Of a DNA stretch of 64,000 nucleotides, positions 1,666 to 48,006 are shown in pieces. The stretch comes from Elusimicrobiales bacterium. Its GTDB lineage: Bacteria; Elusimicrobiota; Elusimicrobia; Elusimicrobiales; Elusimicrobiaceae. The position numbers and the translations under genes were made by a program. The stretch spans positions 10,126-74,125 of the forward strand of contig JAQTYB010000002.1 in assembly GCA_028688475.1 (NCBI GenBank). Direction: 5' to 3'. Each line of letters begins with the position of its first letter. Within the stretch, counting starts at the first letter, position 1. The notes below the pieces were generated by a model that did not search any database, was not told the origin of the DNA, and was given only the letters and a program-made list of their open reading frames with translations.

Positions 1666-2352
1666 ATGCTGGCCGTTCTGGCGGCATTGTGCGCCTGCGC
1701 GCCTTGTTTTCCTCCAAAAACCGCGCAGCCGGAGTTTGCGGGCGTCCCCGCCTACTATCTCCGGCAGGCGCAGATGGATTCGCTGCAACTGCCGCCGCCT
1801 CCGGCGCCGGGGTCCGAGATTGATATGGCCGATATGGGCGCGGTGCATCAGTGGCAGACCAGGCGCACCACCGCGGAATGCGCGCGGGCGCTTTCCGAAG
1901 CGGATGCCACTTACGAACAGTTTTACGGCGCCATAAGCCCTTTCCCAAAGCCGCCGCAGCAGCAGGTCTCGGACTTCCTAAACCGGTTGGAGACGGATGC
2001 CTCTGTCGCCACGACGCGTTTCAAAGAATTTTACAAGCGTCAGCGCCCTTTCATGCGCGATAAAACGGTTCATACCTGCGTCAAGGTCGTTCCTTCATGG
2101 TCCTATCCCAGCGGGCACACCGTGATAGCGCGGCTCACCGCGCTGGCGCTGTCTGACCTGGTTCCCGCGCGGCGCGCCGAGTTCATGGCGCGGGCCGACG
2201 AAGCGGCGCTGGACCGCGTCATCGCCGGAGTTCATCATCCCGCAGACCTCGCCGCCGGAAAACAGCTTGCCGACGAGATTTATCCCCTGCTGCTCAAAAA
2301 TCCCGCCTTCGCGGCGGATATGGAGCAGGCCCGCCTCTCGCTGGCGAAGTGA
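1666..2352 (+). CDS. PAP2-family (class A acid) phosphatase, probable lipoprotein
   Basis: ORF 1546-2352 trimmed to in-frame ATG 1666 (MLAVLAALCAC signal), because the longer form overlaps phoU. PAP2 motifs are present: K-x6-RP (KEFYKRQRP), PSGHT and R-x5-H-x3-D (RVIAGVHHPAD). Confidence 0.75.
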   Translation: MLAVLAALCACAPCFPPKTAQPEFAGVPAYYLRQAQMDSLQLPPPPAPGSEIDMADMGAVHQWQTRRTTAECARALSEADATYEQFYGAISPFPKPPQQQVSDFLNRLETDASVATTRFKEFYKRQRPFMRDKTVHTCVKVVPSWSYPSGHTVIARLTALALSDLVPARRAEFMARADEAALDRVIAGVHHPADLAAGKQLADEIYPLLLKNPAFAADMEQARLSLAK

Positions 2353-4196
2353 AATTCGCTCAAAAACCTGATTGCGATGAAAAGCAGCGCGCACAGCGAC
2401 AGCGCCGCGCCCGCTAAAAGTGAAAGCGGCCTGTAACGGAAAACCACTTCGTGTTTCCCTGACGGCACCCGCACCGCGCTGAAAATGCCGTTATAAGTTT
2501 CCAGCGGCGCGGTTTTGCCGTCAATGAGCGCTTTCCAGCCCGGATAGTAAACCTGCCGCATAACCAGCAGCTGCGGCCTGTCCGCTTCGGTTTCGACACG
2601 CACCGAGTTTCTTCCCGGCTCATAACGCGGCGGCGGCGAACCGCCGTCGAAATACATTAGCGGCCTGGCAGTTTTATTCTCGAAACGCAGAAACTCTATT
2701 TTCCCCGCGGACTGTTTTGCGTCCATGACCAGCGCGATTCCCGCGTCGTCGAGCAGCTTTGCGCGCGCTTGCGGCCTGGTTTCCATGTCAAGCAGGTAAT
2801 CGGCGCAGCTTTTGCTTCGCAGAACCTGATAACTGCGCGCTTCCGCCACGCCGAAAGCCGTGCCGTGGGAGGGCAGCAGCGCTTCTTTTATGAAAACGTA
2901 GTCCCGTTCCGACCCCAGCGCACTGGCTGAAACAGCTTTCTGGAAATCAACCGTGTGGTAAATTCTCGCGCCGCCGTAATCCCGCGCGAAATCCCGCGCC
3001 AGCCGCGGCGTGTCGGTGAAATAGGCGGGTTTCACCCAGGCGAACGTGCTGCGCGCGAAACCGGCGGCGAAAATATCCGCCGCCAGCAGCGCCGCCAGAG
3101 ACAGGCGCAGCGCGGGTTTTTCGACTTTTGCCAGTCCGCGCGCGCAAAGCAGCGCGATGATGAGCAGCGCCGGCAGCAGCCAGTAGGCCGGAAACCGGAA
3201 CACGTTCGTAAACGGCAATGCCGCGTAAAGCGGCGTGGCCGGCCCGAGCGCCAGCGCCAGCAGAACCGCGCAGAGAAAAACGGCGGCGCGTTCGGCTTTT
3301 CCGTTTTTCACGGCGGCGTAAACCGCCAGCGAAAGCGCGGTTATCCCGGCGTAAAAGGCCAGTATTCCGGGGTCCGCGCCGCCGAAATCAGGCGTTTTAA
3401 CCCACGGCGGCACGAGCAGCTGCATTCCCAGTCCGGCCGGCGTGGAGGAATAGACGGCCGCGGTGCTTTTGTCCAGCAGCACGCCCCGCGCCGAGCGCGA
3501 GAGCATTTCCAGAAACGGCAGCGTCTGAGCCGCGTCCAGCGCCAGCGCCAGCAGCGCGCTTTTGAGCAGGAAAACGGTTTTGTCCCTGCCCGAGAAAATC
3601 GCGGCGGCGGCGAAAATCACGGCGGCCATCACGGAGTACGAGGGATATCCCGCCAGCCACAGCATGGCAAACGCCAGCCCCAGCGCGATGGCGGAGCCTT
3701 CAAGATAAAACCACGCGCAAACCGGATACCACGCCAGCGACGCGAAACAAACGCCGAGCGTGCCTTTGGACAGGACCAGCGGATTGAACACGAAAAATGC
3801 CGCGCACGCGGCTGCTGATATTTCGTCGCCGCCCAGCCGCAGGGCGACGCGGTAAAGGAAATAAAACGCCAGCGCGCTGTGAAACAAAATCCAGAACTTC
3901 ATGAATCCGGCGAAACTCAAGAGCAGCCCGAAGAGGAATGGCGGGTAGAGGCTCATGGATTGCGGGTCCGCCAGCAGCGGTTCGCCCATATTCTGCAGCG
4001 GATTCCAGAGCGGCGGCGCGCCGGAGAGAATAGCCGCTTTTACATTCTCGCGCAGCGGATATGTGAGAATAAGCAGATTGCCGTCGGCGGGAAGCAGGCC
4101 GGAGAAAACAAGCCCGCGCCAGGCCGCCGCGAAAAAGACCGCGAAAACAACAGCGGGAAAAAGCAGCGGAAGACATTTTTTTAAGGCTGATTTCAT
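2280..4196 (-). CDS. polytopic membrane protein, YfhO-like GT-C glycosyltransferase family (tentative)
   Basis: 638-aa ORF with many hydrophobic segments followed by a soluble C-terminal domain. The N-terminal region (LILTYPLRENVKAAILSGAPPLWNPLQNMGEPLLADPQ) resembles the YfhO family from memory. The antisense ORFs are Arg-rich junk. Confidence 0.5.
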   Translation of the reverse strand: MKSALKKCLPLLFPAVVFAVFFAAAWRGLVFSGLLPADGNLLILTYPLRENVKAAILSGAPPLWNPLQNMGEPLLADPQSMSLYPPFLFGLLLSFAGFMKFWILFHSALAFYFLYRVALRLGGDEISAAACAAFFVFNPLVLSKGTLGVCFASLAWYPVCAWFYLEGSAIALGLAFAMLWLAGYPSYSVMAAVIFAAAAIFSGRDKTVFLLKSALLALALDAAQTLPFLEMLSRSARGVLLDKSTAAVYSSTPAGLGMQLLVPPWVKTPDFGGADPGILAFYAGITALSLAVYAAVKNGKAERAAVFLCAVLLALALGPATPLYAALPFTNVFRFPAYWLLPALLIIALLCARGLAKVEKPALRLSLAALLAADIFAAGFARSTFAWVKPAYFTDTPRLARDFARDYGGARIYHTVDFQKAVSASALGSERDYVFIKEALLPSHGTAFGVAEARSYQVLRSKSCADYLLDMETRPQARAKLLDDAGIALVMDAKQSAGKIEFLRFENKTARPLMYFDGGSPPPRYEPGRNSVRVETEADRPQLLVMRQVYYPGWKALIDGKTAPLETYNGIFSAVRVPSGKHEVVFRYRPLSLLAGAALSLCALLFIAIRFLSEFHFASERRACSISAAKAGFLSSRG

Positions 4197-4267
4197 GTTG
4201 CCGAGGGTGGAGATATTTTGTTTACTACAGTATCGTAATTTTGCTGTTCAGGGAGCAAGCGCAAAGC

Positions 4268-5185
4268 ATGGAAAACAGCAGTTTTCCGCCTCAACACGGG
4301 AATACGCCGCCGGCCGGGCCGCAGCGCCCGCATGCGCCTCCGGCGCGTCCCTCCGCGTCCCCGCATTCTCCCGCGCCTGCCGCTTCCGGCCCCGCTCCCG
4401 CAGCGCAAACCGCTGTCAATTCTGCGCCGCCTCCGTTACGGGACGCCGGTACCGGAAACGGGCCGCGGACTTTCGCCGATGCCAGGATTATCGTCATCGT
4501 CATGTGCGCGCTGCTGCTGGCCTCCGGCGGCGTCATCTACCGTTATGCTTCCCGCAAAGCGGAGCCGGGCGGGAGCGAGCCCTCCGGTTACGGCAAAGTG
4601 CCAGACCAGTTCCGCGTCCAGCCCGAACCCGTGCGCCTGCCGGCGACTGAAGATGTTCCGCGCGACAGGCTGCTGATTTCAACCGCGTCGCTGCCCGCCG
4701 CCGCGCCGCCCGCGGCGGAACAGGTGCGCCGGCAGGTGGCCGACACCGCGGATGATTTCATCAAGCTTGCTCAGAAATACCGCAACAGGCCCGTCGCAAA
4801 ACAATTCTGGGCCGAAATAAGCGCAGACCCCGTCTTCCAGAAAGCGCTGCAAACGCCGGACAACGCCGGCGCAATGCTGCTGCTGGCGCAGTCGCAGGCT
4901 TCCAGAAACGCCGCCACAGTCGTGAAAAAATATATGGGCAACCCTGATTTCATCCGCCTTGTGCAGGACATCACGCGCGACCCTGATTTCGCCCGCGCCA
5001 TGGGCAGGCTGGGCCCTATGGTCGGCGGCGCGTTGTCGGGCATTCCCGCCAGCCCGTACGGTCCGGTGCCGCCCGGCGTAAGCGCCGCCATTCAAAGCGC
5101 CGTCGGCACGCTGCGGGTGGACCCGGCGGAACTGGGCTCCAACTCCCGTCCCCAATCCGCCCGCGGCGCCCCGACCGGGGAGTAA
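4268..5185 (+). CDS. hypothetical bitopic protein: Pro-rich N-terminus, one TM helix (IIVIVMCALLLASGGVIY), C-terminal domain of unknown function
   Basis: ORF 4241-5185 with ATG 4268 preceded by GGGAG. It is the first gene of the long + strand run and is divergent from the YfhO-like gene. No recognisable domain. Confidence 0.5.
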   Translation: MENSSFPPQHGNTPPAGPQRPHAPPARPSASPHSPAPAASGPAPAAQTAVNSAPPPLRDAGTGNGPRTFADARIIVIVMCALLLASGGVIYRYASRKAEPGGSEPSGYGKVPDQFRVQPEPVRLPATEDVPRDRLLISTASLPAAAPPAAEQVRRQVADTADDFIKLAQKYRNRPVAKQFWAEISADPVFQKALQTPDNAGAMLLLAQSQASRNAATVVKKYMGNPDFIRLVQDITRDPDFARAMGRLGPMVGGALSGIPASPYGPVPPGVSAAIQSAVGTLRVDPAELGSNSRPQSARGAPTGE

Positions 5186-5232
5186 GCGGATAAAACAGTA
5201 TCATTTCTTGCGTTTGCGTCACGAGATATTGA

Positions 5233-6429
5233 ATGGAGAAGGTCGAACTCAGGAAAATGGCGGCAGCCGTGTTTCTTGCTGTGTGTCTCGCAGCGGGGGG
5301 CTACAGGTTATACCGCCGCCACATAAATCTTGCCGCCGCGAATAATGTCGTGCCGCAAATAGTCAGGGAACAGGTTGCCGCGCGGTTTCACCGGAAAGGC
5401 CTGCAAGGCTGTTACCGGAAGGAATGGAGCGCCTGCATACGAAGTTACGACAAAGCCTTAAGGCTGAATCCGCATTCGGCGGTCTATTACTGCAACAGAG
5501 GGCTGGCATATCTGCAAAGCGGCAGGGATGCCGCCGCGGTGAGAGATTTCACCAAGGCTGTAAAACTGGCCCCCGCCGATGAGAGAAATTATGTGGCGCG
5601 CGCCGCGGCTTACGCGGGGCTGGCGGATTTGGAAAAAGCCGAAGAGGACACCAGAACCGCCGCCGGACTTGTCGCCGGCAAACCGGAGGCGGATTTCAGG
5701 CGGTATGAGCAAATGATTTTCGGATATATCGCAAACGGCGAAAAGCAAAAAGCCCTGGAATTTCTGCATACCCCGATGGGTCTTTTGAGCAGTGACTGGC
5801 GTTTTCCCGTTTACAGGGGCATTTTGGCCTGGGATGCGGGACTCTATGACGATGCGGCGAAGGACTTCGCTTATGATTTCATGTCACGGCATCCGGCTAA
5901 TTTCTACAGCCGGAACAAGGGGCGTTTAGCCTGCAACATGGAAAAATATGTTAAACCCGTAGTGTTCAAATACATTGACGCTCTCGCGCGTGGGAATGAA
6001 TATGAAAGCAACCTTCTGAAGGGTGTTGCTCTGGAACAGCTAATCTGTCCCGACTCGACCTACTTCAGCAAAGCCATAGCGCTCAATCCGAAGGATTTCC
6101 GCGCCTACGGGGCGAGAACGGAATATTACCTGCTCGCGGAAAATCCCAGGGCGGTTGACGACGCGGACAGGGCCGTGTACATCAATAAACAGGACCCGCT
6201 GGCGTATATGGTCAGGAACTGCGTGGACAAATACCTGGACAATAGCGGAGAATCAGCTGACGGCTATGCGAACCAGCAGTCGCGGGAATGCCGCATGCTT
6301 TTGCGCGGCCTTATGCAGCCGACCGCGCATGTTTTTTGGGGGAACGAAAAGACTTTGGAGATAGGTCTTGCCAACGTAGCCAGAGCCTGCCGCGCGGGAA
6401 ATCCATGGGCCTGCTCGCTCGATAAATAA
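5233..6429 (+). CDS. TPR-repeat protein, N-terminal membrane anchor or signal
   Basis: 398-aa ORF with clear TPR units (YDKALRLNPHSAVYYCNRGLAYLQSGRDAAAVRDFTKAVKLAPADERNYVARAAAY) and a hydrophobic N-terminus (MAAAVFLAVCLAAGG). Confidence 0.75.
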   Translation: MEKVELRKMAAAVFLAVCLAAGGYRLYRRHINLAAANNVVPQIVREQVAARFHRKGLQGCYRKEWSACIRSYDKALRLNPHSAVYYCNRGLAYLQSGRDAAAVRDFTKAVKLAPADERNYVARAAAYAGLADLEKAEEDTRTAAGLVAGKPEADFRRYEQMIFGYIANGEKQKALEFLHTPMGLLSSDWRFPVYRGILAWDAGLYDDAAKDFAYDFMSRHPANFYSRNKGRLACNMEKYVKPVVFKYIDALARGNEYESNLLKGVALEQLICPDSTYFSKAIALNPKDFRAYGARTEYYLLAENPRAVDDADRAVYINKQDPLAYMVRNCVDKYLDNSGESADGYANQQSRECRMLLRGLMQPTAHVFWGNEKTLEIGLANVARACRAGNPWACSLDK

Positions 6430-6462
6430 CCTGCGCGGACGGCAACATCGGCATCTCAAAGT

Positions 6463-6521
6463 CTGTTCACAATCTTTCGCAGCGAACGGCGCTTGCAGCA
6501 GAATACGGAGATTGTGAACAG
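6463..6521. promoter_or_regulatory. 13-bp perfect inverted repeat CTGTTCACAATCT / AGATTGTGAACAG with a 33-nt spacer, between the TPR gene and gene C
   Basis: Read directly: arms at 6463-6475 and 6509-6521. There is no T-tract afterwards, so it is not a classic terminator. The right arm recurs at 14735-14748. Confidence 0.35.
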
Positions 6522-6586
6522 GCTCTGAGGTCCCGCGGGGTTGAAAGTTCGTCCCGGAGGGGTTATACTTACTGCGAGAGGCGGCT

Positions 6587-7825
6587 ATGGGTGAATTGCA
6601 GCAGAAACGGGAACGCAAGATACTGTTGCTCATGCTCCTGGGATTTGTGGGCACGGGCAGCGGCATCTCCGTGTATCTCGGCGGGCAGGCGCTGCTCGAC
6701 CTGGCCGCGCCGCCGGACAAAAGATTCAGCACCGGCGGCGGGGCGCGCGTTTCCGTAGCCTCGCTGCTGCTTGGTTTGAGCCAGGACAACGATGCAGACA
6801 GCGCGCCGCCCAAGCGCCCTAATTTTTTCGCGGGCCCCACCGCGTTTTTCGTGGATAGCAGCGTTCCCCGCTCCGCCGCGTCCGCCGGCGCAGGAGTTCG
6901 CCGCGGCGTGCCCGCAGCCGGCGCGGATGGCGCAAAATCGGCGGTGATATCGAAGCGGGAAATTCCCATTCCTCCGGCCTCCGCCGGCGGCAAGCCGCGG
7001 CTTGCGGCGGCTCCCTTTGCCGGCATAGGTTCCTCCGGCAAAGGCTCGTCCTCGGGCGGCGCGCTGGCGGGCATGGGCGCGGGCTCTTCCGGAAACAACA
7101 TGCTGTCCGTGAAAGCCTCGGGCGCCGCGGCGCAGAATCCTTCCGACGGCAAGGCTCCGCGCAATAAATCGTTTTCGGCGCTTAAAAATCTCGCCGGCGA
7201 AGCGTTCAAATCCGCCGATACCACGTCCGCTAATTCGGCCAAAAGCGGCATGGACACCGCCTACGGCGCGGTCCGCTCCGACACCGTCGTCTCTTATGAA
7301 AGCCGCCTGGCCGGATTGGACGTGATGAACGGCGCCGTGGCGAGCCTGAAACAAAGCGCTCCCGAATCCCTCAGGGTGGACGCGCCCAAGAGCCTCAAGG
7401 TAGACAACGCCGCCTCCAAGCAAGACCCTTTCAACGCCGCGCTGGATAAAGCCGTCAAGAATATGGACCCTACCTCGGGCGTGATAAACCCCGCGTCCAG
7501 CGGATTGTCCGACACCATGAGCAGCGCCATGGGCGGCGGAGGCGCAAGCGGTTCGTTTTCGGGAAGCTCGGAGGACGGCATGCTCACGGGGTCCATGAAC
7601 CAGGATATAGGAGTGGTGGACGACTCTCTTGATCCCGCGGTGCAGGACTCCATTGAGGAACTGGACGTGTACGGGCAAGGCGGCGAGTACACGCAAAATC
7701 CCGACGGCACCGTTTCCGTGACAATAAATGACAATCCTCCCAGCGAGGCCCTTCTGGAACAGGACGGTTCGGTGATAGCGTTCTCCGACGGCGTGACCGG
7801 AGAGACTTACGTGGATGGCATGTAG
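6587..7825 (+). CDS. hypothetical bitopic low-complexity protein (cluster gene C)
   Basis: 412-aa ORF with an SD (GAGAGG) upstream. N-terminus MGELQQKRERK is followed by a TM helix (ILLLMLLGFVGTGSGISVYLGG), then an Ala/Gly/Ser-rich, Cys-free sequence. Third-codon positions are G/C-rich in this frame. Confidence 0.6.
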   Translation: MGELQQKRERKILLLMLLGFVGTGSGISVYLGGQALLDLAAPPDKRFSTGGGARVSVASLLLGLSQDNDADSAPPKRPNFFAGPTAFFVDSSVPRSAASAGAGVRRGVPAAGADGAKSAVISKREIPIPPASAGGKPRLAAAPFAGIGSSGKGSSSGGALAGMGAGSSGNNMLSVKASGAAAQNPSDGKAPRNKSFSALKNLAGEAFKSADTTSANSAKSGMDTAYGAVRSDTVVSYESRLAGLDVMNGAVASLKQSAPESLRVDAPKSLKVDNAASKQDPFNAALDKAVKNMDPTSGVINPASSGLSDTMSSAMGGGGASGSFSGSSEDGMLTGSMNQDIGVVDDSLDPAVQDSIEELDVYGQGGEYTQNPDGTVSVTINDNPPSEALLEQDGSVIAFSDGVTGETYVDGM

Positions 7826-7974
7826 CCATTTTTGGGTCTTGACAGGCCGGAAAACGCGGGCTAGCCTATTGGCGTAAGATTGAAAATTCGCAGGCGCATC
7901 AACTCTTTGTCCGAGCGGAGGGGTTCCGGGTCGGGCGAGAGGCGGCTTTTTTTACGCCGCGAAAGGAGAATTTT

Positions 7975-8988
7975 ATGGCGGCTGTATTCGCCCGCAAGCC
8001 CAACAACGCCAGATACATCGCGGTGAGCGCGGTGGCCATAGTCCTTGCCATTCTATGGGCCGCCATGCCCGCCAGCGAGCGCGCAGGCGGCGATGTCCGC
8101 CCCGCGCGGTTCAAAGGCCGCGCGGTGAGCCTGAGAAATATTGACGTGCGGCTTGAAGGCCAGGCGGCGGGAATGCCGCTCACGGGCGAAATAACGAACA
8201 ATCCCACCAGACAGCCCCTGTCGGGTTCGTCTCTTTACGGCGTGTCGGACGGCGCTAAATTCGAGGAAGCCGCCGGCAAAGACGCCGGCGCAGCCGCCGC
8301 AACGGCGCAGGACGCTCTCAAGGAGCCGCCCGCGCCTTCGGCGGACGCGGCCGCGGCGCCCTCGTCGGGCGGGGCCGCTCCGGCTCCCGCGTCCCATCCG
8401 GCGGCCAAAAAGCTCAGTTCGGTTCCGGCGTTGAGCGGCGCGTCGGGAGGCGCCACTTCAGGGGCCCCCGTGAGCGGCAGCAAATTTTTCGGCTCCGGCA
8501 ACGGCAAAGCCGAACTGGAAGCCGCCACGCGGCTTAAGGGCGACGTTACGGCGCCGGGCGGAGGCAGGCTGATGGCCTCGCTTCAGAAAACCGAGAATAT
8601 CAGTTCTAAAGCCGCCAAAGACGGCGACAAGGGCGCCGCCGTCGGCGCGTTCGAAGGCGGCAACCGCCTGAGGTCCGATCTCAACGGCGCCCTGGAAAAG
8701 GGCTCGGCCCGCAGCGGCGCGGAGCTTTCGGATGTGGAAGCACAGGTGGCTTCCTTAAAGACCAACGATCCGACGCTCAACAGCGTCAATATCAAGGCGC
8801 CCACTCCGCCCCTGCCCCAGGAGAATATGAAGGACAAACAGGCTGAGATGATAAAGATGATGATAATCCAGATGGCTATCCAGTCCATACTGGGGCCGGT
8901 GTTCGGCTCCGTGGGCCAGATGATATCCGGCGCCGCGGGCACTTCCATGGGCAGCGGAGTGAACAGCAGTTGGAGCGGCGGCCAGTGA
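7975..8988 (+). CDS. hypothetical bitopic low-complexity protein (cluster gene D)
   Basis: 337-aa ORF with SD AAGGAG 7 nt upstream. It has an N-terminal TM helix (YIAVSAVAIVLAILWAAM), an Ala/Gly/Ser/Pro-rich body and a hydrophobic C-terminal motif AEMIKMMIIQMAIQSILGPVF. Confidence 0.6.
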   Translation: MAAVFARKPNNARYIAVSAVAIVLAILWAAMPASERAGGDVRPARFKGRAVSLRNIDVRLEGQAAGMPLTGEITNNPTRQPLSGSSLYGVSDGAKFEEAAGKDAGAAAATAQDALKEPPAPSADAAAAPSSGGAAPAPASHPAAKKLSSVPALSGASGGATSGAPVSGSKFFGSGNGKAELEAATRLKGDVTAPGGGRLMASLQKTENISSKAAKDGDKGAAVGAFEGGNRLRSDLNGALEKGSARSGAELSDVEAQVASLKTNDPTLNSVNIKAPTPPLPQENMKDKQAEMIKMMIIQMAIQSILGPVFGSVGQMISGAAGTSMGSGVNSSWSGGQ

Positions 8989-9037
8989 TGGGTTGCGCGC
9001 CGCGGGCAGCGATTTGCAAACATAACCGGGAGGGTGT

Positions 9038-16656: not shown

Positions 16657-19600
16657 ATGGATGCCAACGACGCTGAAAATTTAACGCCGGACGAGGGCGC
16701 CGGAGATAAAAAAGAAATCGCCGGCGAGTGGTACGGCGGCAAGCTGCCGCCGGACGATATGCGCGCCGGGCAAAAGGAAGACGCCGGCGCGAAGAGGCCG
16801 GAGGCCGCCGCGCTTCCGCCGGTTGACGCGCGCGCCGGACGGACAGAGCCGGTTCCCGCTAAAAACGAGCGCGCGGAGATTCAATTGCCTCCCATCGCCG
16901 CGCGCGCCGGACAGGGGGAAGGACCCTCCCGGTCAAAGGTCTGGGATGCGCTGAAGCTGCCGTCCATCAAAGTGAACGCCAAATCCTCCGGCAAAAAAAA
17001 GACGACCCGCAAAACCGAGTCCATACTTCTGCGCATGCCCAAAGTGCGCTCCACCACCGGCGTGACGGGCAGGGGCCTGCTGACCCGGCTTAAAACCCTC
17101 TCCCGCAAGGACCTTACCTATCTGGCCGGAGCGGCCATGCTGGTCGTTTTCCTGCCCATAGCCTCCAATTACCTGATGAAGCCGGAGAACGACAGGACGC
17201 TGCGTCCCGAATTCGGCCAGCGCGGCGGCGGAAAGGGCGACGTGTTCGAGCCCGGCGCCGGCGGCTTTTCGCCGGGCAGCGTCAGCGGCTCGGGCGATAT
17301 CATAACGCCGCTCAGCGCGCGCGACCCCTCTTCGCTCATCCTCATGCCGGGGGAAGACAAGCCCGCGGCGCCGCCCCCGCCCGCGCCCGCGGCCCAGCCG
17401 CCGGAGCGCGTGGGTGACGCCGTAAGAAACGCCGCCACCCAGGCGGTGAGCAGGGCGGTGCAGACGGTTTCGCCCACTCCCATACCAAAATTGTCCGCCT
17501 CGCTGCGCGGTCTGGGCGCGATAGGAGGGGAGCGTAGCGCCAGCGGGGGCCAGCTTCCCGGTTCGGGCATACTGGCCGCGGCCAACAGAGCTCCCGGCGT
17601 GCCGCAGCGTTCCACTTTGAACCCCGTCGGCATGAAAGGCTACGCCGGCGCCTCCACTCACGGTCCCAGCGTCGGCAGCGTCTCTCCGGAAAATCTCAGA
17701 GCCCGGTCGGACGATATGGGCAACTGGCTTAACCGCTCCGGCGCGGCGCGCTCGCTGGACGCGGCGGCCAACGCCGCCATCGGCGCCGGACAGGGCACCC
17801 CCGGCGGCGGCGCGGGCGGCAGGGACGAGGCGAACAAAGCCGGCGGCGTGGGCTCGATAAAAAACAGCGCGTCCTACAGCCCCGGCAGACAGTCGCTCGA
17901 GGAGCGGCTCCGCGAGATGGCGGCAACCACCCGGCTGCAAAACGCCCTCGCCCACGAGAAATTCATGAAGTACGACGTGAAAGAGCAGATAATAAAAGGC
18001 TTCGTTGACGCCGCGATGAAAGGCATCACGGAACCGCTCACCAAGATGCTGGCCAAGGCGTTGGGCGGCAAAGCCCCTGATGATGACGGCGTTCATTGCG
18101 TTTGCGCGCAACTCCAATGTGTATTTGGGGTATTCACTTATGATAAGGGGAAGGAATATACTGAGGCCGGGGGCTGCAAAGACGACCCTGCGGAAGTAAA
18201 GAAGCAATGCACCACCCAACAGTTGCAAAGCGTAGGCTTCAAGGTCATGCCTTGCGGAAAAGACGCCGGTGGTGGAGGCGGTGACAGCGACGGCGGTGGC
18301 GGCAACAATGGCGGTGGAGGCAATAATGGCGGTGGAGGCAACAATGGTGGTGGCGGCAGCAATGGCCCCAACGGTTCCGATGGCAACCTTCAGGGCGCGG
18401 CCAAACCCAGCAGCCGCGGGGCCAATGAAACGGCAATCACTCAGCGCCAGCTTGTAGACCAAAAATATCCTGAAACCAAGAAATTGGTTGAGAAGTGCAA
18501 ACAGGCGCTGGCAAACTGCAAAGGTAACGGGCAGAATAACGGGCAGGGCGCGCAGACCTCGTATTTTGGCGGGAACGGAAACGGCGCGGAGGCATACTCC
18601 AATCTGAACGCCTTCGCGTCCTGCGGCGCGTTCTGCCATGTTGTCGCCTCTTTATACGCCGGTCCCGTTGGAAACGCCTTCGCGACTTGCGGGAACCACG
18701 GGGGGCCGCCGCCGGAGGGCGCCGATGCCTGCGCCAAGAAGCTTACTGACGAGCAGAAGGCTGTATGCCTCAAGGCCGCCCAGGCGGTTGCCGGTTTGGC
18801 CGGCAACAACAAAGGCATGCATGACGCCGACATCAAGCAGATAGAGGGCATAAAGCAGCAACTGGATAAAAACGGGCAGGAGCTCGACAAGCTCAATCAG
18901 CCCGACCAGCCCGGGAATACGGCGTTTCTCTATAACACCTTTCCCAAAAGCGGCGGCAGCCCCCTGCTGGCCTTTTTCGGCGGCACGCTTGGCGGCGGTT
19001 ATGCCTGCGCGGCGCCCGCCGAGGGCGACGGGAGCAGTGATGCGTCGGCGCGCGGAAATACCGGTACCGAGAAACAACAGACCGGCAGAACCCGTATCAC
19101 CGGTTTCAAGCAGGGCGGCAACGCCGCCGATAACGCCAAAGTTCTCGCCGCCGCGGCGGAATATTGCAAAAACCACAAGGAAGACAAGGATTGCGCCTCT
19201 TACTTCTCCATAAGGGACGGCGGCCAGCAAAAGGGCACGGCATTCCCGGGCGCTTTGCAGCCCGGCTTCCTGGAGGAAAGGAAGAAAGCCCTCGCGGAAC
19301 TTGATGCGGAAATAAAAGCCGTCGTCGAGCAGGATAGGCGGCTTCTGTCCTCCGCCGGCGAAGCAGCGGCGGGGCTGACAGAGAAAAGCCGGAAGGGCGC
19401 GGAAGTCGCGGACAGAGCCGCCAAAACGGTTACGGGGCTCAAATTCGATAACAATCCCAAAGACGATATCACGAGGCTGGAGGAGGCGTTCAACTCGCTG
19501 GGCGACCCCGGCAAATCCGGCGGCGACGGCGACGACCAGTGCAAAACCTCCCTGGGTTGCTTCGCCAAAGTGACGGGCCAGGACGGGGACATGAGCGATG

Positions 19601-19965
19601 AGCACAAGCGGTGGCGGGAGGGCAGGGCGTCGGGCAAGCTCGAGCTCGATTTCCACGGAAACCCGGGCGAATACACCACGCTTGACAGAGACAAAGCGTC
19701 GTTGCTGAGGCTGCTTTCCGTCAGGCGCAATGTTCTCAACGAGATTTCCAGAATCTCCACAGCCCGCGAGTCGCATGCCTCCTGGGTGAATAATTGGGAT
19801 AAAACTTCCGCCCTGATGAAGGACCCGGGCTTCACAAGCCTCATCAGCAGGCTGGCGCTGAAGCAGAATTTGGCGGAGAAGGAGAAAGAGAAAAAAGAAA
19901 AAGAAGCCAAGGATAAAGCCGGGAACAAGGCCGGCGCATCGGATAAAAAGACAGGCGCCGGCTAG
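16657..19965 (+). CDS. large hypothetical bitopic protein (cluster gene J): I-like core plus ~630-aa Cys-paired, coiled-coil-like extension
   Basis: ORF 16561-19965 trimmed to ATG 16657, which has the same GGAGG-N-TTTATGGATGCCAAC start context as gene I. The core is colinear with I up to about 18060. The extension has 18 Cys by my count, a GGGGNN repeat and a Lys/Glu-rich tail. Confidence 0.65.
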   Translation: MDANDAENLTPDEGAGDKKEIAGEWYGGKLPPDDMRAGQKEDAGAKRPEAAALPPVDARAGRTEPVPAKNERAEIQLPPIAARAGQGEGPSRSKVWDALKLPSIKVNAKSSGKKKTTRKTESILLRMPKVRSTTGVTGRGLLTRLKTLSRKDLTYLAGAAMLVVFLPIASNYLMKPENDRTLRPEFGQRGGGKGDVFEPGAGGFSPGSVSGSGDIITPLSARDPSSLILMPGEDKPAAPPPPAPAAQPPERVGDAVRNAATQAVSRAVQTVSPTPIPKLSASLRGLGAIGGERSASGGQLPGSGILAAANRAPGVPQRSTLNPVGMKGYAGASTHGPSVGSVSPENLRARSDDMGNWLNRSGAARSLDAAANAAIGAGQGTPGGGAGGRDEANKAGGVGSIKNSASYSPGRQSLEERLREMAATTRLQNALAHEKFMKYDVKEQIIKGFVDAAMKGITEPLTKMLAKALGGKAPDDDGVHCVCAQLQCVFGVFTYDKGKEYTEAGGCKDDPAEVKKQCTTQQLQSVGFKVMPCGKDAGGGGGDSDGGGGNNGGGGNNGGGGNNGGGGSNGPNGSDGNLQGAAKPSSRGANETAITQRQLVDQKYPETKKLVEKCKQALANCKGNGQNNGQGAQTSYFGGNGNGAEAYSNLNAFASCGAFCHVVASLYAGPVGNAFATCGNHGGPPPEGADACAKKLTDEQKAVCLKAAQAVAGLAGNNKGMHDADIKQIEGIKQQLDKNGQELDKLNQPDQPGNTAFLYNTFPKSGGSPLLAFFGGTLGGGYACAAPAEGDGSSDASARGNTGTEKQQTGRTRITGFKQGGNAADNAKVLAAAAEYCKNHKEDKDCASYFSIRDGGQQKGTAFPGALQPGFLEERKKALAELDAEIKAVVEQDRRLLSSAGEAAAGLTEKSRKGAEVADRAAKTVTGLKFDNNPKDDITRLEEAFNSLGDPGKSGGDGDDQCKTSLGCFAKVTGQDGDMSDEHKRWREGRASGKLELDFHGNPGEYTTLDRDKASLLRLLSVRRNVLNEISRISTARESHASWVNNWDKTSALMKDPGFTSLISRLALKQNLAEKEKEKKEKEAKDKAGNKAGASDKKTGAG
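18268..18363 (+). repeat. 18-bp tandem repeat (GGCGGTGGAGGCAACAAT-like, four good copies plus one degenerate) encoding (GGGGNN)n in gene J
   Basis: Read directly: units at 18292, 18310, 18328 and 18346, preceded by a degenerate unit from 18268. Confidence 0.8.
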
Positions 19966-19997
19966 AAAGACGAATTTGGCGGCGTTCAAGATTGCAG

Positions 19998-20035
19998 CCC
20001 GGGCGGGGAAAGGCTCCCGCCCGGGTTTTTGTTTT
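19998..20035 (+). terminator. rho-independent terminator closing the C-J gene block
   Basis: Stem CCCGGGCGGG, loop GAAAGGCT, stem CCCGCCCGGG (10-bp perfect G/C stem), followed by TTTTTGTTTT. It lies 33 nt after the J stop. Confidence 0.85.
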
Positions 20036-20062
20036 GCAGGGCGTTTTCCGCTTTGGTATAGT
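20034..20062 (+). promoter_or_regulatory. candidate sigma70-type promoter TTGCAG-17 nt-TGGTATAGT (extended -10) for the TPR gene K
   Basis: Motifs read at 20034-20039 and 20054-20062. The -10 ends 8 nt before ATG 20071, which implies a leaderless or near-leaderless mRNA. Confidence 0.35.
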
Positions 20063-20070
20063 TGAGAAGG

Positions 20071-21837
20071 ATGAAAACGGTTTTATTTTTTATCGCTCTC
20101 TTTTCCGCTTCAATCGCGCTATGCGCCGTCTCCGACGACGATTCCCACCCGGAAATGCGCACCGTCTGGGACAGGATAATGCACGCGCAGTCCTACCACA
20201 ACATGTCGCGCGGCCTTTCCCTGCTAGACGACGGCAAATACTCCGAGGCGGCGCGCGAGTTCGGCAAGGCCATAGTCGAAAACCCCGGCGAACCCTGGCC
20301 GCATATCCTGTTGGGCTCCGCGCTTTACTGGGCCGGCCAGGTGGACCAGGCCATGACGGAATTCGACGCCGCGCTCAGGCTGGACCCCAAAAACGCCGAC
20401 GCGTGGCAGCTAAAAGGCATAGCATACTCCTGGAAGGGCAACGGTGCCGCCGCGCTGGAGGCGTTCTCCTCCGCCGCCGGCTACGCGCCCGCGCGGCCCG
20501 ACGTGCAGATGAACCTCGGCTCGATTTACGAGAGCGTCGGCAATTTTTCCGAGGCCGTCGTGCATCTGCGCCGCGCCGCGGAGCTTGAGCCGCGGCATCC
20601 GCTCTACTGGTTCCAGTTGGGCTCGCTCTATTCCCGGCTGGGGCGGGACACGGATGCCGCCGAGGCGTTAAACCATGCGCTGGACATCCACTCCGGCTAC
20701 CAGGACGCGCTGGTGGAGCTGGGCGCGGTGGAGGAGCGGCTGGGAAAAAGCAAGGCCGCGCTGTCACTGTTCAAAAAAGCGGTCAAGCTCAAACCCGGGG
20801 ATTCCGTGGCGCGCCTGCGCGCCGCGCTGCTGCTGGACAAAGCCGCCGCCCGGCCCGACGCCGAGGAGATTATCGCGGGCGCGTTCAACCTCATGCCCAG
20901 CCGGACGGGCGAGGGAATCGCGCTTTCGGTTTCCTATTCCGGCGCGGCGGCCAAAGGCCCGCCGGGCCAGCCGGATAAAAGCGCGGATTCCAAGACGCCG
21001 GCAAAGCCGCAGTCTGGCGGGCCGGTGGATTCCCTCCGCCGCAACCTTGAGCGCGCGCCGCTGGACCAGCAGGTGCATATCTCGGTGGAAATGCTCTACA
21101 TTCCGCAGCCGGTATTGCAGCGGGAAAAACCGGGGGAGGCCGTAAAAGGCGCGCTGGGCCGCGCGCTCAACTCGCAGATGCAGGCGCAAAAGCACACGCC
21201 GGTCGTGCTTGCCGCGAAACGCGATTTCACGCTGCCGCCCGGCGACGCGCTGGCCCGCTCCTCCGAAATTGATTCCATCGTGGACGAGCTCAACAAAGCC
21301 GTGGCCGGCGTGCCGCCCGGCGCGGATATGCGCATGGCGCTCAGCATGGAGACCAAAAAACCCGGCGCCGCGCCCGCCGGCCCCGCGCAGCAGGACGGCG
21401 GCACGTCCGGGCAGGGCCGCGCGCCCGACGACGCGGCCAGCGCCTCCCGTGTGGTTTTCAACCCGCGCGCCGTCGGAAACGATATGGGGCTCTGGGTGAT
21501 GGGGACCGCGTGGCTGGATTTGGTCAACGAAGTTACGCCGGAGCTTGAAGCGCTCGCTGAAACCGAAACCGACCCCGTAAAATGGGAAGCGGCGGGGCTG
21601 GCGCACGTCATAGCGGGGGAGTCGCGGTCCGCGCTGGAGGATTTCGCGCGCGCGGAGTCCCGCGGCGCGCGCGAGACGGCGCTCATGGGTTCCGCCGTGG
21701 CGTGGGTGCTTGCCGGCAGCGAGGAAAACGCGGTGGACTGCCTGCGCAAAGTTCTCAAGCTCAATCCCGGCAACAAAACCGCGCGGGAGAATCTGAAATG
21801 GCTCACCACTCCGTCGAATATACAGGGGGCGAAATGA
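20071..21837 (+). CDS. secreted TPR-repeat protein (cluster gene K)
   Basis: ORF 20062-21837 with ATG 20071 giving the signal peptide MKTVLFFIALFSASIALCA. It has several TPR units (DAALRLDPKNADAWQLKGIAYSWKGNGAAALEAF, RRAAELEPRHPLYWFQLGSLY), a low-complexity middle and a TPR-like C-terminus. Confidence 0.75.
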   Translation: MKTVLFFIALFSASIALCAVSDDDSHPEMRTVWDRIMHAQSYHNMSRGLSLLDDGKYSEAAREFGKAIVENPGEPWPHILLGSALYWAGQVDQAMTEFDAALRLDPKNADAWQLKGIAYSWKGNGAAALEAFSSAAGYAPARPDVQMNLGSIYESVGNFSEAVVHLRRAAELEPRHPLYWFQLGSLYSRLGRDTDAAEALNHALDIHSGYQDALVELGAVEERLGKSKAALSLFKKAVKLKPGDSVARLRAALLLDKAAARPDAEEIIAGAFNLMPSRTGEGIALSVSYSGAAAKGPPGQPDKSADSKTPAKPQSGGPVDSLRRNLERAPLDQQVHISVEMLYIPQPVLQREKPGEAVKGALGRALNSQMQAQKHTPVVLAAKRDFTLPPGDALARSSEIDSIVDELNKAVAGVPPGADMRMALSMETKKPGAAPAGPAQQDGGTSGQGRAPDDAASASRVVFNPRAVGNDMGLWVMGTAWLDLVNEVTPELEALAETETDPVKWEAAGLAHVIAGESRSALEDFARAESRGARETALMGSAVAWVLAGSEENAVDCLRKVLKLNPGNKTARENLKWLTTPSNIQGAK

Positions 21838-22388
21838 AAATAATTTCAGCGGCGTGCATTGCGGCCCTGTTTGCGGCTCCGTGTCTCTCCGCCGCGAAAC
21901 CGGCGAATCTCAAACGCGGCGGCGTGAAAATTTCCGTCAGCGGCGCGCTGTCCGCCAAAACCGGCAAGGCGCTGGCCCTGCTCGGCAAATCAGCGCCGGA
22001 GGCGGGCGCGCAGGTCAAAAAGTATGTCTTCGAGATAAAAAAAGGCGCGCTCTCCGGCATTTCGCCGGAAAACGCTCCGAACGCCGTGGCGCTGAGCACG
22101 GCGGCGGCAGGATGTTCCGTCACCTGGCTGGCGGGCGCAATCGCGCATGAAAGCTGCCTGCTGAAGTTGTACGCCGACTACGGGAAAAGCCATGAAGGGC
22201 CGGTTCCGCGGCGAGTCTGGACGGGCGGCGAGGCGGATAGATATTGCATTAGGTATCAGCTTTCCGTGCTGCGCCAGCTCAACGCGCCGCAGCAGGAAAC
22301 GGATTGCCTGAGTTCCGGCGCCGGCAACAATTCCGGCGCGGCCTCCTCCTACGCCGGCTGGGAAAGCCGCTGCACTTCCAATCGCTGA
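21834..22388 (+). CDS. secreted hypothetical protein (cluster gene L)
   Basis: ORF 21582-22388 trimmed to ATG 21834, which overlaps the K stop (ATGA). It has the signal peptide MKIISAACIAALFAAPCLSAA. No recognisable domain. Confidence 0.55.
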   Translation: MKIISAACIAALFAAPCLSAAKPANLKRGGVKISVSGALSAKTGKALALLGKSAPEAGAQVKKYVFEIKKGALSGISPENAPNAVALSTAAAGCSVTWLAGAIAHESCLLKLYADYGKSHEGPVPRRVWTGGEADRYCIRYQLSVLRQLNAPQQETDCLSSGAGNNSGAASSYAGWESRCTSNR

Positions 22389-22397
22389 TTGCGGTTT

Positions 22398-23207
22398 ATG
22401 CCTAAATTCAGCCAGAACTTTCTTGTGAACCCCGGCATCTGCCGTTCCATCGTGAACGCGCTTGCGGCGCTGCCGGCCGGTTTCACCGTCGAAATCGGTC
22501 CCGGAAAAGGCGCGCTCACAAAATTGCTGGCCGGGCGCGGCGAGCCCTTCGCCGCCGTCGAGATAGACCCGGAGATGGCGGCGCTGCTGCGCCGGGCGCC
22601 GGAAATAGCGCGGCTGTGCAGCCTTCATAATATTGATTTTCTGAAAGCGGATTTGAGCGCGGCGCTGCCGCGGGGCGAAGCCATTTTGTTCGTCGGAAAC
22701 CTGCCTTACGATTGCGGCTCGGCGATTTTGCAAAGGGCGCTTGCCTGCCCGCGGTTTGGCGGCGCGGTGTTCATGTTCCAGAAGGAAGTGGCGCAGCGCA
22801 TTGTGGCCGGCCCCGGCTCCGGCAAATACGGGCTGCTGGCGCTGAGCGCGCAATGCCGCGCGCGCGTCCGGCTGCTTATGACGGTGGGCAAAAACAATTT
22901 CAGGCCGGTTCCGGCGGTGGATTCCGCCGTGGTGGAATTTGTCAGGCTGGAAAGTTCGCCGTTCAAATCCGCGGAGCACGAGGCGGGGTTTTTCAGGACA
23001 ATCCGCGCCGCCTTTGCCCACCGCCGGAAAACGGTCGCAAACTCGCTCTCGCTGTCGTTATGCAGCGATAAAGCGGTTTTGGAGCGGCAGTTGGCCCGCG
23101 CGGGCATAAACCCCGCCCTCCGTCCCGAAGCCATCCCGCTGGAAAAGTATGTCCAACTGGCGGATGTACTGTGTTTCAATCAATCAGGCGCAAGTCCGCA
23201 TTTTTAA
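22398..23207 (+). CDS. rsmA: 16S rRNA (adenine1518/1519-N6)-dimethyltransferase RsmA/KsgA
   Basis: N-terminal PKFSQNFLVNP and the SAM-binding VEIGPGKGALT are typical of KsgA. ATG 22398 is preferred over TTG 22389. Confidence 0.85.
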   Translation: MPKFSQNFLVNPGICRSIVNALAALPAGFTVEIGPGKGALTKLLAGRGEPFAAVEIDPEMAALLRRAPEIARLCSLHNIDFLKADLSAALPRGEAILFVGNLPYDCGSAILQRALACPRFGGAVFMFQKEVAQRIVAGPGSGKYGLLALSAQCRARVRLLMTVGKNNFRPVPAVDSAVVEFVRLESSPFKSAEHEAGFFRTIRAAFAHRRKTVANSLSLSLCSDKAVLERQLARAGINPALRPEAIPLEKYVQLADVLCFNQSGASPHF

Positions 23208-23224
23208 TATAATGAGACAGATTT

Positions 23225-24145
23225 ATGCAGAGCGCGCATCACAAGCCTGACGTGAAATCGCTGCGGGAAGCGGCCCTGAAGCTGTCCATGCCCAAAAAGC
23301 GGCCCGTCCTGAAAAACCGGCGCCGGTTGCACGGGCGGGACAAGGAGCTTGTGGCCGTGGGCGATTTGCACGGGGAGCTCGACGGCATTCTGGAGATACT
23401 GCTCCACGCCGGACTTATAGACTTCCGCGCCCGCTGGAAAGGCGGCAACAAAACCCTCGTGCAGCTGGGCGATGTGATAGACCGCGGCCCGCATTCAATG
23501 GACGTCAACAATCTGCTGGCGCGGCTCCAGCGCGAGGCCGAGCTCAAGGGCGGCAAAGTGGTGCGGCTGCTGGGCAACCACGAGCTGGAGCTGCTGCGCG
23601 GAAACGCCTACCTCACCACCCTGCCGCCGGAGCAGGCCGGGGAATACCGCCGCCGGCTGGCGGGGGATATTTTGAACGGCAACGTGCTGGCCGCCTACTC
23701 GCAGCAAGGCTATCTTTTCACCCATGCGGGGCTCACCGGCGAGATGCTGAGCCTGCTCGCCAGGTCCGACGGCCCCCTGCCGTCCGACGAGGCCGGCCTG
23801 GCGGACCTGATAAACAAAATAACCGCGCAGGCTCTCATGCGCAACGATTACTCTCACAGCATTTTCAATATCGGCGCCTCGCGCGGCGGGCGTTACCGCC
23901 ACGGCGGGATTTTCTGGGAGGATGTGCGGCTGCTGTTCGCCTCGGAAGGCGCGGCGGGGATAAAACAGGTGGTGGGCCACACCCCGCTCAAACGCGTAAT
24001 CCAGAGCGAGGGCGGCAGGCTGACCGCGCTGGATGTGGGGATATACAAAGGTTACGGCGGGGGGCGCGCCTACATCCGCATGAAACGCGGCAGGATATCC
24101 ATAGTGGAACTGGCGCTGCCCGCGGTAGTTTCTATTTTGCAGTAA
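23225..24145 (+). CDS. calcineurin-like metallophosphoesterase (PPP/ApaH-like)
   Basis: Motifs GDLHG, GDVIDRG and GNHE are present in order. Confidence 0.75.
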   Translation: MQSAHHKPDVKSLREAALKLSMPKKRPVLKNRRRLHGRDKELVAVGDLHGELDGILEILLHAGLIDFRARWKGGNKTLVQLGDVIDRGPHSMDVNNLLARLQREAELKGGKVVRLLGNHELELLRGNAYLTTLPPEQAGEYRRRLAGDILNGNVLAAYSQQGYLFTHAGLTGEMLSLLARSDGPLPSDEAGLADLINKITAQALMRNDYSHSIFNIGASRGGRYRHGGIFWEDVRLLFASEGAAGIKQVVGHTPLKRVIQSEGGRLTALDVGIYKGYGGGRAYIRMKRGRISIVELALPAVVSILQ

Positions 24146-43077: not shown

Positions 43078-43084
43078 AAAAATA

Positions 43085-43232
43085 TACTCTTCGGGGCAAG
43101 GTGGAATTCCTGGCCGGCGGTACAGCCCGCGAGCTTTCGGTAGAAAGCATGACTTGGTGAAATTCCAAGGCCGATCGTAAAGCCGAGATGTGAGAAGAGC
43201 CGCTGTGCGTGTTTTTGCGCACGCATGATTTT
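43085..43232 (+). promoter_or_regulatory. FMN riboswitch (RFN element) with terminator-type expression platform
   Basis: The conserved RFN core is CTCTTCGGGGCAAGGTGGAATTCCTGGCCGGCGGTACAGCCCGCGAGC...GACTTGGTGAAATTCCAAGGCCGATCGTAAAGCCGAGATGTGAGAAGAG. A hairpin (43204-43227) plus ATTTT follows. It lies directly upstream of ribBA. Confidence 0.9.
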
Positions 43233-43275
43233 AACGCCCTGGAGCATTCCGCGGCGTTATTTTTTTGGAGGTACC

Positions 43276-47957: not shown

Positions 47958-48006
47958 AACTGGTAAAATGGATTTTGTCATCGCAACACCTGACCGCTTG
48001 AATGAT

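Follow-up and report, generated by a model that had tools for sequence, protein, structure and literature searches.

What kind of system is encoded by the long run of unannotated genes at positions 4268 to 22388 of a 64-kb stretch of an Elusimicrobiales contig (JAQTYB010000002.1; the whole stretch is called the window here)? The bacteria of the widespread phylum Elusimicrobiota are diderm, very small, and mostly uncultivated, and to our knowledge their envelope biology is almost unknown. The genes, labeled A to L in order (Table 1), had been read in an original prediction as a self-contained operon of eight domain-less, low-complexity, membrane-anchored proteins bracketed by tetratricopeptide repeat (TPR) proteins, and as a candidate for an undescribed envelope or surface system. 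By comparison of related genomes, we regard it as established that the locus holds a real, conserved, Elusimicrobiota-restricted cassette of six unannotated families (C, D, E, F, G, and J). The predicted features of the proteins indicate that this cassette most likely acts in the cell envelope.

The open reading frames (ORFs) of the block have the properties of genuine genes. ORF listing and translation placed every gene across 4268 to 22388 on the + strand, and the eight genes from C to J (6587 to 19965) lie head to tail with purine-rich, GGAGG-like sites 5 to 9 nt before their starts, both as originally described. In the called frames, GC content at third codon positions (GC3) was 0.63 to 0.81 (0.73 to 0.81 once B was excluded), and housekeeping neighbors were alike. 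We then used a close relative of the window, L170 (~95% amino acid identity), to estimate ratios of nonsynonymous to synonymous substitution (dN/dS). These were 0.15 for A, 0.16 for B, 0.34 for C, 0.16 for D, 0.14 for E, 0.14 for F, 0.36 for G, and 0.35 for H, compared to 0.17 for the phoU control. Because this range (0.14 to 0.36) is near the phoU value, we take the low-complexity frames to be translated and constrained, and the block consists of real coding genes under purifying selection. The encoded proteins are dominated by Ala, Gly, Ser, Pro, and Thr (combined fraction, 0.44 to 0.63). Cys occurs in even numbers (6 in G, 8 in H, and 18 in J), within C-terminal parts in each case and confined to regions predicted to be extracytoplasmic. 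The composition and the Cys counts thus agree with the earlier description.

The block is also likely to be transcribed as a unit. Since only short gaps separate the genes, C lies behind a promoter-like site, and J ends in front of the best terminator, we propose that C to J form one transcription unit here, running from ~6541 to the terminator at 19996. That terminator had been ranked as the strongest in the window; the ranking holds within positions 3900 to 23300, the stretch that was ranked.

The reach of the cassette beyond the window was assessed with several searches. A word-indexed search returned 13 relatives of J, and scanning a single genome for each GTDB species gave J relatives in at least 110 genomes. 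Among 80 listed genomes with a J relative, 76 were labeled Elusimicrobia or Elusimicrobiota and 4 only "bacterium." An exhaustive HMMER search of the I/J family against 1.84 billion representatives gave 369 clusters, 275 of them at E values of ≤1e-30, near full length. When family hidden Markov models (HMMs) were run on the loci, the order D-E-F(-F)-G-J recurred in dozens of genomes, with C in the lead in one large lineage. On crude gene calls, 45 of 56 eligible loci had G before J, and 36 of 47 had E/F before it. L031, a metagenome-assembled genome labeled Elusimicrobium sp., also carries the cassette. C orthologs hold the same position in L007 to L009 and in ~17 genome loci. A, B, H, and L had no counterparts beyond L170. 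These data suggest that the conserved unit is the set of six families C-D-E-F-G-J, vertically inherited and specific to Elusimicrobiota. A lack of homologs or synteny would have refuted the original prediction; homologs were found in conserved order in many related genomes. Its eight-gene unit shrinks to these six families, with H and I as local additions.

Downstream of J, the neighborhood varies: elsewhere in the phylum the next genes are dnaX-recR-comEC or those for two more large proteins without domains, c3 and c5. The former is ~1,200 amino acids (aa) long, with a signal peptide in the representative examined, and the latter exceeds 1,600 aa (L049, 12521 to 16126; L004, 19254 to 22382; and ~30 other loci). 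Both are possible additional components or cargo.

No profile or fold search placed these proteins in a characterized family, the outcome on which the proposal of an undescribed system had depended. The proteins of the block, searched against Pfam, NCBIfam, PHROGs, and PADLOC, gave nothing significant or recurring outside the TPRs of B and K, which are thus the only recognizable domains of the block, as originally stated. The same was true of 42 J, 34 E, and 33 F members searched against Pfam or NCBIfam and of consensus sequences searched against Pfam. One match of E to the NCBIfam model "FGLLP membrane protein" (E value, 0.0095) recurred in no other member and was set aside. Sequence profile searches of the PDB with D, E, G, and J returned nothing or compositional coiled-coil matches. 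Foldseek comparison of the AlphaFold2 (AF2) models of G and J with PDB and BFVD gave no match at an E value of <0.01, only generic helical bundles. By family, then, C had no domain match, D no Pfam or PDB match, G no PDB sequence or Foldseek match, and J no fold or domain match (Pfam and NCBIfam on members and consensus, PDB sequence profiles, and Foldseek). Literature searches turned up no account of a comparable envelope or pilus system in Elusimicrobia. As predicted, the block encodes no ATPase, secretin, prepilin, or sortase detectable by Pfam, NCBIfam, or motif scan, and no PEP-CTERM signal either. Regular-expression searches for a lipobox, LPXTG, PEP-CTERM, and GlyGly-CTERM were negative, and no NCBIfam sorting-signal model matched. 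Beta-barrel and secretin profiles had no match, and for G and J, AF2 modeled nothing but helices and coil.

Within the cassette, several families are related to one another. E and F are paralogs, as first noted (BLASTP E value, 4e-7; hhalign probability, 100%; E value, 1e-47), and C is paralogous to D (hhalign, 97.5%; E value, 8e-12). D, for which the family alignment has 32 members, also has a block in common with E (hhalign, 94.7%). In contrast, D and J are linked weakly (36%) and at their N-terminal ends. The C-terminal motif once attributed to D, I, and J is therefore not upheld, and D instead groups with C. A gene of sister genomes, m4, is paralogous to C (99%; E value, 7.5e-18) and to D (97%). 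Taken together, these alignments indicate that C, D, E, F, and m4 are diverged paralogs. G was also considered as a paralog of D or F; the comparisons gave no support. The ORF of F opens at 10410, and we set its start at 10503 from an NCBI protein of an Elusimicrobiales metagenome-assembled genome (P0037), which is 511 aa long and 100% identical.

Whereas sister loci carry a single J-type gene, the window carries both I and J, which are 51% identical across 386 aa and thus paralogs, as had been predicted. The ORF of J opens at 16561; its likeliest start is 16657, where ATGGATGCCAAC is encoded as in I behind a properly spaced GGGGAGG site. J contains an invariant juxtamembrane motif, GDxITPLSxRDPSSLI, and a conserved Cys cluster. 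In the full-length AF2 model of J, the mean predicted local distance difference test (pLDDT) score was 47, and helices at residues 617 to 655, 730 to 779, 903 to 958, and 1046 to 1121 reached pLDDT values of 80 to 94. The AF2 model of G had a mean pLDDT of 43, the 6-Cys hairpin (60 to 72) being its sole moderately confident part. Two repeats were seen in this pair of genes: a 132-nt (44-aa) tandem repeat of 1.9 copies in the region encoding the predicted cytoplasmic N-terminal part of I (15013 to 15263), and an 18-nt repeat of 4.2 copies in J (18292 to 18366), encoding (GGGGNN)4.

We next considered topology, which was assigned from hydropathy and charge only. In every core protein, the N-terminus carries a positive charge and a membrane helix comes after it. 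The median net charge in the 25 residues before the first transmembrane helix (TM1) was +1 to +4.5, and at least +2 in all families except E. Hydrophobic helices number 3 in E and 4 to 6 in F, with one helix N-terminal and two to four clustered C-terminally. C-terminal TMs were found in 31 of 34 E, all 33 F, and 24 of 36 G members; the two such helices of G are missing in the window and in L170 (417 aa), where the protein stops directly after the last conserved Cys. In E and F, the loops separating the C-terminal TMs are positively charged. The simplest topology for E, F, and G would place the N-terminus inside, a big loop outside, and a short turn in the cytoplasm. Seven of the proteins had been described as a short N-terminus followed by one helix. 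The single helix does not apply to E, F, and most G orthologs. The short N-terminus does not apply to I and J, in which hydropathy places the single TM near residue 225 of I and residue 190 of J, behind a long acidic, Pro-rich region.

The outer loops are constrained in an unusual way. Median lengths (interquartile ranges) were 274 aa (269 to 282) in E, 284 aa (282 to 289) in F, and 406 aa (397 to 417) in G, near-constant although identity is only about 25 to 35%; the coefficient of variation of the F loop length was 0.05. Thus, loop sequence drifts while loop length stays. After TM1, E, F, and G share an "SS[LIM]-D/A-M-[FVI]" motif, variants of which occur in D and J. Compared to shuffled controls, the motif was enriched in F (27 observed versus 7.2 expected), G (23 versus 8.9), and D (30 versus 13.6). 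The host is taken to be diderm because genes for Omp85 and TolC-type proteins lie in the window. The envelope or periplasmic location put forward at the outset fits both the predicted topology and the paired Cys residues.

Table 1. Features of the gene run, in window coordinates; topologies, promoters, and the terminator are predictions
Feature	Positions	Strand	Description
A	4268-5185	+	Bitopic, Pro-rich N-terminus; lineage-specific
B	5233-6429	+	Membrane-anchored TPR protein, 10 Cys; lineage-specific
Promoter-like site	6541-6569	+	TTGAAA-17-TATACT, just 5' of C; 10/12 consensus matches, best in region; consensus match only
C	6587-7825	+	412 aa, N-in bitopic, Cys-free, low-complexity; first gene of conserved cassette
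D	7975-8988	+	337 aa, N-in bitopic; conserved "AFDG…LKxNDPxLN" block; hydrophobic C-terminal helix
E	9038-10492	+	484 aa; TM1 at about residues 60-90, ~274-aa low-complexity loop, two C-terminal TMs, "YGQK" motif
F	10503-12038	+	511 aa; E paralog; ~284-aa loop, 3-4 C-terminal TMs
G	12072-13289	+	405 aa, N-in anchored; conserved 6-Cys helical hairpin, residues 312-381
H	13349-14428	+	359 aa, secreted, Ser/Gly/Thr-rich, 8-Cys C-terminal module; lineage-specific insertion
Noncoding gap before I	14429-14769	+	341 nt, unusually long, G-rich
I	14770-16443	+	557 aa; duplicate of J front (juxtamembrane) half
J	16657-19965	+	Cassette hallmark; single TM, juxtamembrane region, Cys cluster, helical C-terminal extension, 18 Cys in total
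Intrinsic terminator	19996-20037	+	3' of J; hairpin 19996-20027, 13-bp stem with 10 GC pairs, then TTTTTGTTTTG T-run
Second promoter-like site	20033-20062	+	5' of K
K	20071-21837	+	588-aa TPR protein, N-terminal signal-type helix
L	21834-22388	+	184 aa, secreted, Cys-containing; overlaps K stop codon; lineage-specific

Sister lineages extend the picture upstream. Ahead of D or C, they encode an FtsH-like protease with clear AAA and Peptidase_M41 domains. It scored 441 bits against TIGR01241 (cutoff, 600 bits), with the match starting at profile position 118 and the periplasmic region missing, suggesting that it is a divergent FtsH paralog. It is preceded by genes for a TadE-like protein, u188, with the N-terminus GQATTEVVLLFP (consensus, 21.8 bits versus the Pfam TadE cutoff of 22.9), and for a protein with a TadG-like N-terminus. 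A longer array, exemplified by L143, came to light in a metagenome scan that used the TadE-like protein as its anchor. This array begins with a HAMP membrane protein, a small membrane protein, an OmpR-type regulator, a REC protein, and a 500-aa secreted protein. It continues with a dCache-HAMP histidine kinase, a hybrid kinase, and a LuxR-type regulator, and it ends with TadE-like, TadG-like, and TadE-like genes, the FtsH-like gene, m4, and an S41 protease, followed by C-D-E-F-G-J. The S41 protease lies directly upstream of C, and K downstream of J, in L007 to L009 and L143; the S41 gene, present in sister loci and not in the window, matched TIGR00225 with an E value of 1e-49, under the cutoff. 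The paralogy of m4 to C and D ties the cassette to this module by homology as well as position. The cassette is thus probably not self-contained, contrary to the original prediction, since in sister genomes it is contiguous with m4, proteases, TadE-like genes, and a two-component cluster. By the same evidence, an ATPase (the FtsH-like protein) may belong to the system although none is encoded in the window. Two further observations concern this upstream region. The signal-transduction cluster upstream of the TadE-like/FtsH-like module (L143, 553 to 8457) is conserved in many Elusimicrobiota contigs. In L002, a 68-aa ORF (628 to 834) with a Flp-type prepilin motif, RKG/QSTVEYLLVMAVIV, lies upstream of the TadG-like, TadE-like, and FtsH-like genes.

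How might these proteins work together? The reading that we favor, tentatively and with somewhat less than even confidence, is that the cassette builds a new, phylum-specific, inner-membrane-anchored periplasmic scaffold. Its thickness would be set by the loops, with J as a rod and K, S41, and the FtsH-like protease as partners. The proteins C to J would insert N-in into the inner membrane, so that the loops, Cys modules, and J rod would lie in the periplasm. They would assemble into one multisubunit, membrane-anchored mesh or spacer of defined thickness, from which J would project outward as a disulfide-stapled helical rod. The "SS[LIM]-D/A-M-[FVI]" motif and K might supply protein-protein contacts, and in sister lineages the S41 tail-specific protease and the FtsH-like membrane protease would probably mature or turn over subunits. 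Candidate roles include envelope spacing, tethering, and a platform for something else.

Several observations weigh against this scaffold. The low AF2 confidence (mean pLDDT, 43 and 47) fits disorder and also shallow alignments, and within a complex the loops could be folded. A conserved length of the loops would suit a spacer no better than a structure that is folded or templated. The motif-enrichment test admitted a degenerate pattern. K lies after the terminator and is missing from most lineages, making its partnership uncertain. The TadE-like/FtsH-like/m4/S41 module adjoins the cassette in some lineages only; many contigs have unrelated genes after it, and the 64-kb window contains none of it. 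If the scaffold reading is right, an ordered, phylum-wide set of six families, under purifying selection and with no detectable outside relatives, would be a lineage-defining component of the cell envelope. Proteins anchored at both ends, with loop lengths kept within a few residues, would then offer a test case for disordered or repetitive segments that set periplasmic distances, with J as a marker gene and the E and F loops as concrete targets.

Known periplasmic systems help to place such a scaffold. Like TonB and TolA, the cassette proteins are predicted to combine a single N-in anchor with a long, low-complexity stretch in the periplasm whose span is roughly fixed. As in the TonB and Tol systems, they are encoded in an operon with small membrane proteins in diderm hosts, and Tol-Pal also includes a periplasmic TPR protein (CpoB/YbgF). 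However, the cassette lacks TonB_C, TolA domain III, ExbB/ExbD, and TolQ/TolR: searches of single proteins, family members, and consensus sequences gave no Pfam or NCBIfam match to TonB_C, TolA domain III, or ExbBD/TolQR. Its linkers are rich in Gly, Ala, and Ser rather than in Pro, Glu, and Lys; E, F, and G carry an anchor at each end; and there are six paralogous or coevolving families as opposed to one transducer. A second comparison is with periplasmic helical spacers and coiled-coil arms such as the Braun lipoprotein Lpp, which serves as an envelope ruler, Thermotoga Omp-alpha, and the arms of EnvC/PcsB. J helices of 39 to 76 residues would span ~6 to 11 nm at 1.5 Å per residue, and the coiled-coil region of EnvC was the best PDB sequence match of J (E value, 7e-5). 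That match nevertheless stands among generic coiled-coil matches (NuMA, SMC, and prefoldin) and is compositional. J further differs from these spacers in its N-terminal TM anchor, its 18 Cys, and its lack of a lipobox (by regular expression) and of M23, LysM, SLH, and OmpA-like domains in the J searches. In both cases, and in the comparisons with Tad and S41-TPR systems below, we consider the likenesses to be functional, not homologous.

A wider version of the scaffold, possible though doubtful, takes in the whole sister array. The cassette, m4, S41, the FtsH paralog, the TadE/TadG-like proteins, the two-component cluster, and the giant secreted proteins would together constitute an undescribed Elusimicrobiota envelope machine. 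Double-anchored loops would build a periplasm-filling scaffold or conduit, the J rod would reach to the wall or outer membrane, and the FtsH-type AAA+ protein would service the assembly in place of a classical secretion ATPase. Should the FtsH-like and TadE-like genes prove to be linked to the cassette, a new mode of building structures of the envelope could come to light.

The same neighborhood raises an alternative that we judge unlikely, namely, that the cassette is the membrane platform of an appendage or secretion apparatus with a logic akin to Tad or type IV filaments. In it, the TadE/TadG-like proteins would form a fiber or tip, the FtsH-like protein would supply energy or quality control, and c3/c5 or the J rod would be cargo. 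This proposal draws on the u188 gene, the TadG-like N-terminus, the Flp ORF of L002, and the FtsH-like gene, all upstream in sister lineages; on m4, which lies within that module and is paralogous to C and D; and on the domain-less proteins of 1,200 to >1,600 aa that follow J in a second lineage, the c3 representative having a signal peptide. Pilus systems commonly have TPR proteins as accessory factors (TadD and PilW), and K matches such factors weakly and generically. The resemblance to the Tad/Flp set (TadD and TadE/F/G) also extends to layout: several N-terminally anchored small or medium proteins stand beside a TPR protein, and in sister lineages the genes immediately before the cassette include TadE-like ones and one for an Flp-type prepilin. 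The core of such an apparatus is nonetheless missing. A regular-expression scan of A to K found no prepilin or Flp/TadE motif in C to J, including G/XXXXE(Y), and these proteins had no Pfam match to TadE, N_methyl, or Flp; in sister loci, only u188 and the one Flp ORF carry the motif. Neither the 64-kb window nor the annotated sister upstream array contains a T2SSE ATPase, T2SSF, secretin, or prepilin peptidase; one T2SSE gene lies ~10 kb away, in L009 only. Likewise, TadA/CpaF, TadB/C, RcpA, and TadV were absent from the window and from the Pfam-annotated sister genes, most genes in the 160 related loci having been clustered only, without annotation. The window lacks TadE-like and FtsH-like genes, the module is separable from the cassette, being followed by unrelated genes in many metagenome loci, and the Flp-type ORF occurs in one lineage only (L002). 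Identity of C to J as a Tad pilus was rejected for want of a prepilin motif and core Tad genes.

Somewhat less likely again is a reading in which the proteins are substrates or regulators of an envelope proteolysis-signaling circuit (S41 with a TPR adaptor, the FtsH-like protease, and two-component proteins) that steers remodeling or division. S41 directly before C and K after J, in L007 to L009 and L143, recall Prc-NlpI of Escherichia coli and CtpA-LbcA of Pseudomonas aeruginosa, in pairing an S41 protease on one side of the sister cassettes with a large periplasmic TPR protein on the other. In the other lineage the FtsH-like paralog adjoins the cassette. Genes upstream also encode a dCache-HAMP histidine kinase, a hybrid kinase, and three regulators. 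FtsH and Ctp proteases use long tails as handles, and the long cytoplasmic and C-terminal tails of these proteins are possible protease handles. Against these parallels, K resembles NlpI and LbcA only at the level of generic TPR repeats (33 bits against the NlpI model, cutoff 250 bits), and the window encodes neither protease. The peptidoglycan hydrolases that Prc-NlpI and CtpA-LbcA target are not encoded here, the cassette contains no peptidoglycan hydrolase or synthase domain, and six paralogous, length-constrained families would be an unusually large substrate set.

Two last readings are far less probable than those above. The block could be lineage-specific filler, fast-evolving, dispensable, or miscalled ORFs in GC-rich DNA without a joint function, as its low complexity, lack of domains, and low AF2 confidence, together with the restriction of A, B, H, I, and L to close relatives of the window, might suggest. 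This very improbable reading is largely refuted by synteny and selection, namely, dN/dS near that of phoU, in-frame GC3, and six families in the same order phylum-wide with conserved motifs, Cys positions, and loop lengths. Least probable of all, and refuted for practical purposes by context, is cargo of a mobile element, prophage, or antiphage defense island: a cluster of hypothetical proteins and a transposase a few kilobases downstream in one sister locus are outweighed by the lack of significant PHROGs (one subthreshold match; E value, 0.0039) or PADLOC matches, by the lack of flanking integrase, tRNA, or repeats, by GC content that matches the surroundings, and by housekeeping flanks (pstB, phoU, ksgA, nadE, dnaX, and recR) in a position stable phylum-wide.

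Among the remaining genes of the run, A, B, H, I, and L are local additions. A and B are present in L170 and have no orthologs in L002 to L009. The TPR of B passed the Pfam TPR_1 cutoff (E value, 3.7e-12). K gave strong matches to consensus TPR proteins and to the OGT TPR domain (E values, 4e-68 to 1e-29) and many generic NCBIfam TPR matches, with no specific family at cutoff. It lies between J and ksgA at 45 to 59% identity in the window's sub-lineage only. The initial image of a TPR-bracketed operon is therefore not sustained: B is shared with L170 only, and K is confined to one sub-lineage and sits after the terminator with an apparent promoter of its own. L is absent between K and ksgA in L007 to L009 and matched no family. 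H likewise has an ortholog in L170 and none in L002 to L009. Inspected by eye, its sequence is consistent with the cleavable signal peptide proposed for it, with the cut between MKRIIVLTAAVLLGLSSAALA and QG. The 8-Cys module of H gave weak knottin-type matches (Toxin_12, E value of 0.026; Conotoxin, E value of 0.13).

In the gap between H and I, hairpins were found at 14650 to 14686 (a perfect 11-bp stem) and 14703 to 14719. Sister loci have a gap of 350 to 700 nt before J, and the sequence of the window gap is conserved only patchily. A conserved RNA element was considered here and rejected, given this patchy conservation and the lack of an Rfam match.

On the flanks, L is followed by ksgA, an ApaH-like phosphoesterase gene, and nadE. 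The metallophosphoesterase after ksgA (the pair at 22389 to 24145) is weakly ApaH-like (NCBIfam PRK00166; E value, 3e-8), and the pairing recalls the E. coli ksgA-apaG-apaH order. Just upstream of A, a divergent gene (2280 to 4196, − strand) encodes a 638-aa multipass YfhO-family protein (annotation from L170) and adjoins a pstB-phoU-PAP2 group. The rest of the 64-kb window carries diderm housekeeping genes, e.g., those for Omp85, a TolC-type OEP, glyS, ribBA, and ATP synthase. Two adjacent, overlapping + strand genes (47911 to 50280 and 50265 to 52673) encode TPR proteins of ~800 aa with many repeats and are positionally unrelated to the cassette. An FMN riboswitch (43083 to 43203, + strand; Rfam RF00050, 100 bits, E value of 5e-22) lies directly 5' of ribBA (43225 to 44472).

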